Shown here piece after piece: positions 33,069-37,798 of a stretch of 64,000 nt of DNA (position 1 is its first letter; the number at the start of each line of letters is the position of its first letter). Below the pieces are notes generated by a model, which was not told where the DNA came from, did not search any database, and was given only the letters and a program-made list of their open reading frames with translations. Source of the stretch: Escherichia coli (GTDB lineage Bacteria > Pseudomonadota > Gammaproteobacteria > Enterobacterales > Enterobacteriaceae); the NCBI RefSeq assembly GCF_003018255.1, contig NZ_CP027440.1; one strand, written 5' to 3'. The position numbers were made by a program, and so were the translations under genes.

Positions 33069-33077
33069 TAAAGACAA

Positions 33078-33110
33078 GGCGCAACCTTCACGGGTTGCGC
33101 CTGTGTTTTT
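33078..33110 (+). terminator. intrinsic terminator after mdtK (convergent with ydhQ)
   Basis: GGCGCAACC-TTCACG-GGTTGCGCC hairpin followed by TGTGTTTTT. Confidence 0.75.
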
Positions 33111-34365
33111 ACGCAGGCTGGAGCGTTGCGCCAATCCCGTCTTCGTCTGGCTGTAGTTTCAGTGCGTTACACAGAGTTTGCCGACTGGCATCTGTTATCT
33201 CAACGTGTATATCACCAGTAACTTCCCCTTTCACATTGATGAAGTCAGGTGAAATTTCTTTCGCACTGGTTTGCAGGCAAATCGCTCCCTCTCCGCGCAG
33301 GCGTTTCACTTTCAGTTGCACATGCGTTGCCGCACCAGTGATTAGCCACAGTTTTCCGCCATTTAGATTGATGCTACCAACACTGAAAGTGACACTGTCA
33401 CCTTTTACCGTACTGCCGTCGAGAATCAATACACCGCCCTGCTGTACAGTAATCGTTGATTGTTGCAGATCTGCGCCATAGCCAATAATCATTGAAGCGC
33501 CGTCCAGTAATGCAACACTACCGGTCAGTTCAACCGGTGCGCGATCTTCCTCTACGACAAAATTTTCGTCCGCGCTGGTGGGTGACAACAGGATGACTGT
33601 CCCACCTTGTATTACCGCATTTTCCAGCGTACCGGCATGCACTTCAGCCCGACCACCCACATTAACGGACAGGTTTTGCGTCTTACCGGAACTGTAGAGC
33701 TGAAGACCATCCGTCCCCAGACGATAAGTGGATCCATTCTCAACAATAGTGTCAGAGTCTTCACCACCGAGATTATTCATGGTGCCACCAGCAAGCAATG
33801 TATCACTGGCTTTCCCCGCCAGCATAAAAACGCCGCCCTGATTAATCTCACAATTGCTGGCTTCCCCACCTGGATACACCAACAATTCACCACCTTCATC
33901 TACCACGACCGCTGAGGTTGTCCCATTGACCAACAGGCCACCCTCTTGATCGAGAATAATTTTTTCCGCGCGATGGCCTTCCAGTACACGCAGGTTACCG
34001 CCATTTTCCAGCAACAAACCGCAGGCATAACCTTTATCAACGCTGAATTCACCTTCGGGATGGCGGCCATTAACCGTAGCGAGCGTAGAGAGACTAATTG
34101 CGCCTCCCTCGGACTGAACAATATCTGTGGCAATGGCACCGTCGCTGACCGATAGCGTGCCATTGTTGCCGTACTGTGTGCATTTGGCGATCCCACCGGT
34201 TGCCACTTTCAACCAGCCAGCCCCCGTGACCACGGTATTTTCGGCTCTTCCGCCAGCTTCAACAATTAACTCACCTTCAGTAAGTTGCGTCGCGCCAATG
34301 ACCTCGCCGGTCTTAACAATTTGCACGTTCCCGTCGCTCATCAAGTTTTTCGCATCAGATCCCAT
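33109..34365 (-). CDS. ydhQ: autotransporter-passenger-like repeat protein
   Basis: 418 aa ORF rich in Gly/Thr/Val beta-strand-type repeats; no obvious N-terminal signal peptide and too short for a C-terminal beta-barrel; recognised as YdhQ. Confidence 0.85.
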   Translation of the reverse strand: MGSDAKNLMSDGNVQIVKTGEVIGATQLTEGELIVEAGGRAENTVVTGAGWLKVATGGIAKCTQYGNNGTLSVSDGAIATDIVQSEGGAISLSTLATVNGRHPEGEFSVDKGYACGLLLENGGNLRVLEGHRAEKIILDQEGGLLVNGTTSAVVVDEGGELLVYPGGEASNCEINQGGVFMLAGKASDTLLAGGTMNNLGGEDSDTIVENGSTYRLGTDGLQLYSSGKTQNLSVNVGGRAEVHAGTLENAVIQGGTVILLSPTSADENFVVEEDRAPVELTGSVALLDGASMIIGYGADLQQSTITVQQGGVLILDGSTVKGDSVTFSVGSINLNGGKLWLITGAATHVQLKVKRLRGEGAICLQTSAKEISPDFINVKGEVTGDIHVEITDASRQTLCNALKLQPDEDGIGATLQPA

Positions 34366-34618
34366 GATTTATTCCTTTGCTGCATCTGTGTGCCTTTATT
34401 GCTACCTAAGTGTAAAGGCTACGGAGGATTTATCCACGACAGATTTTGAGATGGTGGCAAACAACTCTGTTTAAACTCTGATACACGGATTATTGGGTTG
34501 TATCTGATGTAAATGCGATCCTGAATAAAAATCGCCCTTGCAAATCAACAAAATATAGCCAATTTGCTTAAAAGCTCTGCAAACGGTCGAAATAGCGCAG
34601 AAAATTACGTTTTGCCTC

Positions 34619-34647
34619 TTGCCACCTTCCCACTCTGCCGCTAATAT
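34619..34647 (+). promoter_or_regulatory. candidate sigma70 promoter of the valV-valW tRNA operon
   Basis: TTGCCA -35, 17 bp spacer, TAATAT -10, followed by GC-rich discriminator TCGTCCCCG about 20 bp before the tRNA 5' end. Confidence 0.55.
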
Positions 34648-34673
34648 TCGTCCCCGTTGTCACCTACAACGTT

Positions 34674-34750
34674 GCGTTCATAGCTCAGTTGGTTAGAGCA
34701 CCACCTTGACATGGTGGGGGTCGTTGGTTCGAGTCCAATTGAACGCACCA
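34674..34750 (+). tRNA. valV: tRNA-Val (anticodon GAC)
   Basis: 77 nt: GCGTTCATAGCTCAGTTGGTTAGAGCACCACCTTGACATGGTGGGGGTCGTTGGTTCGAGTCCAATTGAACGCACCA; canonical D-loop, T-loop GTTCGAGTC and encoded CCA. Confidence 0.95.
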
Positions 34751-34754
34751 TCCT

Positions 34755-34831
34755 GCGTCCGTAGCTCAGTTGGTTAGAGCACCACCTTGACATGGTGGGG
34801 GTCGGTGGTTCGAGTCCACTCGGACGCACCA
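34755..34831 (+). tRNA. valW: tRNA-Val (anticodon GAC), tandem copy
   Basis: 77 nt copy 4 bp downstream of valV; differs in acceptor stem (TCCG...CGGA vs TTCA...TGAA) and T-stem with compensatory changes; encoded CCA. Confidence 0.95.
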
Positions 34832-36985: not shown

Positions 36986-37798
36986 TCAGCACTCAACAAA
37001 CTGATGCTGTTCATTAAGGCGATAGCGGACTCCGGCTCGAATATTGTTTTCACCTTCAATGGCGACGGCGAAGCGAACTCTTTCGCCGTCATGATATGCC
37101 AGTGCGGCGCTTCCCCCTGGCCCGAGAATAATTGAGTCGACCACGCCCGTGCTCACTATTGTTGAATCTTCACCGCTGGCAATGATGTGTACATTGTCGC
37201 CGCTGTTGGCAATTCTGGCGTTTGCGCCAAAGCTGGCGATTTGCACCAGGTCACCATTACTGGCGACATGACATCGTTCACCCAATGTACAAACGCGTAC
37301 TCGCATTCCGGTATTCGCAATCCGACTGCTATCTCCAGCGCTGCTTATCCGCGAAGAATTACCGGTTACAGCAACCCGTGCGCGTTCACCGGAGCTGCCA
37401 ATGTGACTGTTAAAGCCGACACTTCCAATCCGCACGCTATAACCCATACTGGCAATTTGCGCGGCATACCCAGCGGTTGCGATTCTGGCATTATCCTCAC
37501 AACAGCCGATGCGAGCATGATCGTCGCTGCGGGCAAACTGACTGCAAAATGCTCTCTCTCCGGGATCTGTGGCCAGTTTTTGCATAGAAGAAACTTCCTG
37601 ATGCGCGAAGTTTTCATCCGCCAGCCATTTTTTCCACGCATACTCAACCAGACTCTCCGCCCAGTCCGTATATCCTTCCTCAATCAGTGCATGATGAATA
37701 TCGGCATAACTACCGCCGCGTGGGAAATGGCGCAGAAACCAGCGATACATCACCGCTCCGATACGCCATTCTCGCAGGTCTGCTCGTGTAATGATCAT
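36986..37798 (-). CDS. ydhT: beta-solenoid-like nonapeptide-repeat protein, last gene of ydhYVWXUT
   Basis: 270 aa ORF; residues 93-227 form 15 consecutive 9-residue repeats (e.g. DNARIATAG, NSSRISSAG, DSSRIANTG, ANARIANSG); recognised as YdhT. Confidence 0.85.
   Translation of the reverse strand: MIITRADLREWRIGAVMYRWFLRHFPRGGSYADIHHALIEEGYTDWAESLVEYAWKKWLADENFAHQEVSSMQKLATDPGERAFCSQFARSDDHARIGCCEDNARIATAGYAAQIASMGYSVRIGSVGFNSHIGSSGERARVAVTGNSSRISSAGDSSRIANTGMRVRVCTLGERCHVASNGDLVQIASFGANARIANSGDNVHIIASGEDSTIVSTGVVDSIILGPGGSAALAYHDGERVRFAVAIEGENNIRAGVRYRLNEQHQFVEC

Follow-up and report, generated by a model that had tools for sequence, protein, structure and literature searches.

Escherichia coli ydhQ raises the question of how a protein built like part of a secreted adhesin, and apparently lacking the parts needed for secretion, is to be understood. 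The gene lies in a 64,000-nucleotide stretch of E. coli DNA (assembly GCF_003018255.1, contig NZ_CP027440.1), which is referred to as the window. Its position is as follows:

33109-34365, minus strand: ydhQ coding sequence, 418 residues, a stand-alone beta-helix homologous to Ag43/AIDA-type autotransporter passengers.

A preliminary description, made from the sequence alone, had recognized pertactin-like passenger repeats in this product, remarked on a missing signal peptide and a missing translocator barrel, and offered an orphan remnant or a cytoplasmic beta-helix with another role as two ways to read it. The evidence assembled here favors the latter over a decaying remnant. YdhQ is probably a domesticated cytoplasmic beta-helix derived from an Ag43/AIDA-type passenger, kept by selection for binding or scaffolding inside the cell, in which its N-terminal third is likely involved, and placed under the control of CsrA.

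The passenger-like character of YdhQ was borne out by profile searches (Pfam AIDA and Pertactin, and NCBIfam), by alignment to Ag43, and by structure prediction and comparison. The reading frame is intact, begins with ATG and encodes the N terminus MGSDAKNLMSDGNVQIVKTG; the product is rich in glycine (15.3%), leucine (10.5%), valine (9.1%), alanine (8.1%) and threonine (8.1%). The identical protein is entered in RefSeq as WP_001563421.1, “ydhQ: AIDA repeat-containing protein.” YdhQ is the founding member of NCBIfam PRK09945, and the corresponding YdhQ equivalog model (NF007409) matched residues 1-418 of 418 with 938.5 bits against a cutoff of 830, which places the product in that family. Repeats of about 19 residues, typical of self-associating passengers, were recognized by Pfam AIDA (PF16168) in three stretches (E = 8.7e-29; 99.8 bits against a cutoff of 27) and by the strand-loop-strand repeat model TIGR04415 (43.7 bits against a cutoff of 30). 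Full-length models scored far lower relative to their thresholds (auto_Ag43, 88.8 bits; auto_AIDA-I, 52 bits; cutoffs of 1200), and YdhQ is not an equivalog of Ag43 or AIDA-I. The repeats are degenerate, with autocorrelation peaks at lags of 17-19, 27, 36 and 54 residues reaching z scores of only 2.9-3.9.

An AlphaFold2 (AF2) model of YdhQ, built on a 19-sequence alignment, was predicted with high confidence (predicted local distance difference test [pLDDT], 92; predicted template modeling score, 0.88) as a single, all-beta, continuous beta-solenoid spanning residues 7-417. The best Foldseek matches in the PDB were Ag43 (7koh, 7ko9, 4kh3 and 7kob) and TibA (4q1q), with E values of 3e-11 to 4e-9 and a probability of 1.00. 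The beta-helical passenger of a type Va autotransporter is thus present, as judged by AF2, Foldseek and Pfam AIDA. An enzymatic beta-helix, such as a lyase or tailspike, was considered and set aside; matches of this kind had Foldseek probabilities of 0.2 or less and TM scores below 0.2. Four features of the product are needed for what follows:

33676-34293, minus strand: AIDA/Ag43-like repeat region (residues 25-230), about 18-19 residues per rung, recognized by Pfam AIDA, the NCBIfam Ag43 model (model positions 249-456 of 948) and TIGR04415.

33157-33381, minus strand: proximal part of a pertactin-like autochaperone (residues 329-403), matching Pertactin PF03212 profile positions 1-78 of 121.

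33946-34125, minus strand: most conserved module (residues 81-140, …TVNGRHPEGEFSVDKGYACGLLLENGGNLRVLEGH…), including a predicted beta-hairpin at residues 97-110.

34348-34365, minus strand: disordered N-terminal tip MGSDAK (residues 1-6), with a pLDDT below 50 in the AF2 model.

The match to TIGR04415 also bears on a different explanation, since this model describes repeats targeted by heptosyltransferases. YdhQ might serve as a cytoplasmic decoy or substrate of passenger-modifying enzymes (e.g., autotransporter heptosyltransferases) or of chaperones, thereby tuning the maturation of passengers such as Ag43. The heptosyltransferases Aah and TibC act in the cytoplasm and on strand-loop-strand repeats, and the closest solved structures include TibA, which is hyper-glycosylated. 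However, heptosyltransferases are accessory to certain pathotypes while ydhQ is core in the genus, no heptosyltransferase gene was seen near ydhQ, and an experimental hint is absent. This explanation is the most improbable of those considered here.

Comparison with complete autotransporters located both ends of YdhQ within the passenger. Residues 26-142 align with crystallized Ag43 alpha-domain chains at positions 201-317 (E ∼1e-19). In an exhaustive HMMER scan of 1.84 billion cluster representatives, one YdhQ cluster was followed by large autotransporters only, the closest full-length relative being a protein of 1534 residues (P0026) with 38% identity. The longest colinear match joined YdhQ residues 7-396 to residues 77-490 of a YcgV-like protein (P0103; 29-32% identity). 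Residues 2-12 also align to passenger sequence of P0103, such that the frame starts inside a passenger rung. At the opposite end, the C terminus (…IGATLQPA) aligns in a multiple alignment with the …GGGxAxFTLA of the autochaperone module, and full-length relatives run on past this point into the rest of the autochaperone, a linker and the barrel. Being colinear with the mid-to-distal passenger and ending inside the autochaperone, YdhQ is a passenger fragment truncated at both ends and not an autotransporter. Missing from its N-terminal side are the signal peptide and the first ∼90-175 residues of the passenger; missing from its C-terminal side are the distal autochaperone, linker and 12-stranded barrel.

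A close full-length parent autotransporter and a DNA-level deletion breakpoint of ydhQ were both sought, and neither was found. Because no full-length relative exceeds 38% identity, the truncation is old. With no close parent and with the neighboring mdtK abutting the ydhQ stop codon, only protein-level breakpoints are possible. Of the comparison proposed in the preliminary description, then, the protein-level points were found and the DNA-level breakpoint was not. The orphan remnant that it had offered holds as to origin, YdhQ being truncated at both ends relative to an Ag43/YcgV-like passenger; as to fate it does not, given that the gene is near-universal in E. coli, fixed in length and has a ratio of nonsynonymous to synonymous substitution rates (dN/dS) of ∼0.1.

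Known systems share the repeats of YdhQ and differ at its ends. Ag43 (Flu), AIDA-I and TibA carry the same ∼19-residue strand-loop-strand repeats recognized by Pfam AIDA. As a group they are further marked by head-to-tail self-association, which makes cells aggregate, and by O-heptosylation. The residue 81-140 module recurs in Ag43 and P0026, and its hairpin consensus (…G.N..G.F.V..G.A.G..LE.GG.L.VL.GH…) is common to Ag43 and YdhQ. Unlike YdhQ, Ag43 possesses an extended signal peptide, ∼175 further N-terminal passenger residues, a complete autochaperone, a cleavage site and a barrel; local identity between the two is only ∼30-45%, and the conserved cysteines are on the YdhQ side. YcgV, an AIDA-type adhesin of E. 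coli K-12 (represented here by P0103 and P0128), offers the best colinear full-length match, sharing the repeats, the region of the MxNLGxD…YxLG motif and the start of the autochaperone. In contrast to YdhQ, it continues for several hundred residues through the rest of the autochaperone, linker and barrel, and it bears a hydrophobic leader (h-region score, 2.36). The paired long strands typical of the pertactin-type autochaperone cap (PF03212) are seen in the AF2 model of YdhQ, whereas profile positions 79-121, including the conserved …VDxGxYxYxL… hairpin of the relatives, are missing; with 78 of 121 positions, the autochaperone is incomplete. Secretion has also been lost from ydbA and yaiT of E. 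coli K-12, autotransporter pseudogenes split by insertion sequences (IS) in recent, strain-specific events. The ydhQ product is likewise secretion-incompetent, but its truncation is old, clean, genus-wide and under purifying selection.

To examine export, the best 11-residue Kyte-Doolittle window within the first 70 residues was scored, with signal-bearing relatives as positive controls. Three YdhQ orthologues scored 1.1-1.6, as compared to at least 2.3 for all five controls (YcgV-like, Ag43-like, P0026, P0123 and P0110). An in-frame stop lies two codons 5′ of the ydhQ ATG, making an N-terminal extension impossible, and an N-terminal Sec signal peptide is thus absent, as had been proposed. No twin-arginine translocation (Tat) motif, lipobox or repeats-in-toxin (RTX) motif was found in YdhQ. 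The reported lack of a translocator barrel was upheld as well; Pfam detected no PF03797 barrel in YdhQ at E values up to 1, and the AF2 model contains neither an alpha-helical linker nor a barrel. Since the beta-helix occupies residues 7-417, no sequence is left for either. The convergent mdtK ends 40 bp past the ydhQ stop, which leaves no room for a barrel downstream, and no partner barrel gene is located within 15 kb on either side of ydhQ. The preliminary description had named three findings that would count against it, namely a cleaved signal, a partner barrel gene and membership in an unrelated family; none was encountered, the barrel gene having been sought within the same 15-kb flanks. 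Three of the four features that define type Va autotransporters (signal peptide, complete autochaperone and C-terminal 12-stranded beta-barrel) are absent from YdhQ, and it is not to be classed as an autotransporter.

Published experiments are consistent with a cytoplasmic location. A 2026 study (PMC13101318), which used the term “leaderless autotransporter,” obtained a negative SignalP 6.0 result for YdhQ. When no signal peptide was added, YdhQ fusions were fluorescent, folded and cytoplasmic by microscopy and gave no extracellular agarase activity, whereas YcgV fusions failed to fold in the cytoplasm (PMC13101318). The cysteine content of YdhQ points the same way. Each orthologue has three to six cysteines, with C363 invariant and C115 nearly so, while seven of ten secreted passenger segments aligned to YdhQ lack cysteine altogether and a closely spaced pair is all that the remaining three contain. 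Autotransporter passengers avoid cysteine, as disulfides hinder translocation across the outer membrane. The conserved cysteines that YdhQ has gained, as seen in these alignments, thus appear to be a cytoplasmic signature atypical of secreted passengers.

Conservation of ydhQ was examined across the genus. The gene is present in 5424 of 5426 complete E. coli genomes (97.6-99.9% identity), and orthologues of exactly 418 residues are found in E. ruysiae (90%), Escherichia sp. E4742 (87%), E. marmotae (83%) and E. albertii (80%). The most divergent orthologue seen (419 residues, 72% identity; L002 1-1636, Logan SRR31578456) begins at the same start, and its leader is conserved. No orthologue outside Escherichia/Shigella was found in the HMMER scan or in locus look-ups. 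E. coli, E. marmotae and E. albertii share one locus, ydhR / tRNA-Val / ydhQ / mdtK, and the slot ydhR / ydhQ / mdtK / ribC(ribE) / cfa is common to E. albertii and E. marmotae. Around this slot, ydhS has been lost from E. albertii (L003 1-8000) and the ydhYVWXUT oxidoreductase cluster from E. marmotae (L005 1-8000), with ydhR, ydhQ and mdtK retained in both.

Selection on ydhQ was quantified as dN/dS. Between species, values ranged from 0.06 to 0.13 with dS of ∼0.8-1.1 or saturated, and from 0.09 to 0.13 with dS of ∼0.8-1.1; the overall value was about 0.10, with a bootstrap 95% interval of 0.07-0.16 and a maximum of 0.19. Codons 1-140 gave 0.03-0.07, and comparisons within E. coli gave 0.13-0.24. 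Values for neighboring genes were 0.01-0.02 (mdtK), 0.02-0.04 (ribC) and 0.06-0.09 (ydhR). The most conserved stretch of YdhQ is residues 81-140, where window identity is 0.93-0.99 among nine orthologues down to the 72% one. The gene is under purifying selection and is not decaying, as indicated by its near-universal presence in E. coli, its length fixed at 418 residues, its shared locus and its dN/dS of ∼0.1.

Several observations nonetheless weigh against a cytoplasmic protein kept by selection. The first of these would fit an inert relic instead, i.e., an autotransporter leftover, transcribed and translated, that does nothing and has survived by chance. Truncated ydhQ alleles or IS insertions exist in some E. 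coli/Shigella lineages, though they are rare. In E. coli AR_0013 (NZ_CP032204.1; L010 675-3592), an ISEcp1-family transposase inside ydhQ separates two annotated pseudogene halves, the only such disruption among sampled matches. Rare E. coli alleles encode 370-391 residues (P0007, P0008, P0014 and P0015) and cover 100% of the query; they appear to be in-frame losses of ∼27-48 residues, or ∼1.5-2.5 helix rungs, which suggests repeat-mediated slippage or intragenic recombination. Some YdhQ fragment clusters were also seen in a profile search for other stand-alone passenger-only families, which returned almost only YdhQ variants or fragments and is uninformative for other genera. Deletion of ydhQ has no obvious laboratory phenotype, so little effect that it is used as a neutral control and the locus as a safe-harbor integration site. 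Such laboratory neutrality is common for core y-genes. A relic would also account for YdhQ being shorter at both ends than any of its full-length relatives. Against this stand the low dN/dS with saturating dS over the Escherichia radiation, even the bootstrap maximum being 0.19; the intact frame of exactly 418 residues in E. coli, E. ruysiae, E. marmotae and E. albertii and its near-universal presence in complete E. coli genomes; and the retention of ydhQ where nearby operons were lost, along with conservation of its leader and Shine-Dalgarno sequence. A relic is very unlikely, and this explanation is close to refuted already.

Other observations, several of which run counter to the favored reading, concern location, and most would fit an extracellular or surface adhesin exported nonclassically (by vesicles, lysis, the flagellar apparatus or piggy-backing on another autotransporter) with a role in early adhesion and biofilm formation. 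The homology of YdhQ to self-associating adhesin passengers is in line with such a role, as is the strong conservation of its short disordered N-terminal tip. YdhQ is included under COG3468 in a list from vesicle proteomes. Positively selected ydhQ sites, as in surface proteins, are reported in PMC9110714, which also cites earlier work for a requirement in early adhesion. Genomic SELEX located a FlhDC-bound sequence (PMC9962212) at 34582-34623, in the interval that separates ydhQ from the divergent tRNA genes valV-valW. Finally, YdhQ is claimed to be displayed on the surface once a signal peptide is added (PMC13101318). This last claim is to be taken cautiously because the missing barrel was not addressed there and the readouts were indirect. 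An exported adhesin is at odds with the lack of a signal peptide, Tat motif, lipobox, RTX motif, barrel and nearby partner barrel gene; with the cytoplasmic behavior of fusions lacking an added signal peptide; with the conserved cysteines; and with a dN/dS of ∼0.1 and a most constrained N-terminal third, a pattern unlike that of an immune-exposed surface protein. Against such an adhesin as well, the original adhesin screen of Roux et al. in 2005 reportedly saw no adhesion upon ydhQ induction. On balance, a nonclassically exported adhesin is unlikely.

Under the favored reading of a domesticated passenger fragment, YdhQ would be a soluble, cytoplasmic, right-handed beta-helix, exapted from an internal part of an Ag43/AIDA-I-type self-associating passenger. 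With every type Va secretion element lost, the helix would have been retained for intracellular binding or scaffolding. This role is probably centered on the very conserved N-terminal third and within it on the residue 81-140 hairpin module, the hairpin of which is formed by strands 97-102 and 105-110 in the AF2 model. The MGSDAK tip that precedes it is kept in all YdhQ orthologues; a eukaryote-like N-myristoylation motif was rejected for this sequence, as position 5 is off consensus.

More specifically, YdhQ could be the first documented autotransporter passenger domesticated intracellularly, a CsrA-controlled helix with its ultra-conserved hairpin module binding EF-Tu and/or RNA and modulating translation or RNA metabolism in Escherichia. 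This version is doubtful. EF-Tu is a common co-purification contaminant and phase-separation RNA-binding screens yield false positives, points that likewise count against an intracellular role. The favored reading itself is backed by the co-purification of YdhQ with EF-Tu (PMC2672614), by its place among unannotated RNA-binding-protein candidates (bioRxiv 10.1101/2023.07.03.547468) and by its quantification in a proteome (PMC6561319).

Expression of ydhQ may be set post-transcriptionally by CsrA, through the following element:

34366-34430, minus strand: conserved ydhQ 5′ leader with Shine-Dalgarno sequence, identified by leader conservation and published as a CsrA-bound 5′ untranslated region (PMC5389547).

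Across orthologues as distant as the 72%-identity one, the 60 nucleotides 5′ of the start hardly vary, and a Shine-Dalgarno AAGGA is positioned 8 nucleotides 5′ of the ATG (34373-34377). The gene is among 19 validated direct CsrA targets (PMC5389547). The predicted fold of the leader was no better than that of shuffled sequences (z = 0.2), and the count of ANGGA motifs over the window was below chance expectation, a result that is silent on CsrA. As neither the fold nor the motif count lends support, the CsrA link is drawn only from PMC5389547.

The gene is monocistronic, convergent with mdtK and divergent from two tRNA-Val(GAC) genes. One further element lies at its 3′ end:

33077-33102, both strands: bidirectional terminator-like hairpin common to the convergent mdtK and ydhQ, with stems of 11 pairs on the plus strand and 10 pairs on the minus strand.

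A scan for sigma-70 promoters on the ydhQ strand found no consensus match, and a sigma-28-like promoter 5′ of ydhQ was dropped, the by-eye match being weak (∼5/8 per half). The two tRNA-Val(GAC) genes are in tandem at 34674-34750 and 34755-34831, separated by 4 bp. A 62-residue open reading frame at 34641-34829 (minus strand) was rejected as a gene, being merely antisense to them. A second leaderless repeat protein is encoded 2.6 kb from ydhQ by ydhT (36986-37798, minus strand; 270 residues). Residues 96-230 of YdhT comprise ∼15 contiguous nine-residue repeats of the form (R/H/Q)(I/V)xSxGxxx, and its sequence is unrelated to that of YdhQ.

The ydhQ gene, its annotation, its architecture, the missing signal peptide and the cytoplasmic behavior of its product are already known, the last two from PMC13101318. 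The present analysis adds the protein-level truncation points, the genus-wide fixed length, the synteny kept in E. albertii and E. marmotae, the quantified purifying selection, the cysteine signature and the argument that ydhQ is neither an autotransporter nor a relic. It concerns an uncharacterized core gene of the best-studied bacterium, for which the adhesin or autotransporter label given in annotation and several papers is structurally untenable because YdhQ is without both ends of the secretion machinery. Reading YdhQ as a cytoplasmic passenger fragment shifts work away from assays of adhesion and the cell surface and toward partners inside the cell, and it calls for caution where ydhQ routinely serves as a neutral site for deletion or integration, or YdhQ as a display anchor. 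For engineering, YdhQ offers a beta-helix scaffold that is naturally foldable in the cytoplasm. Were the doubtful EF-Tu- or RNA-binding version true, it would mean that secreted adhesin stalks can be recycled into cytoplasmic scaffolds.

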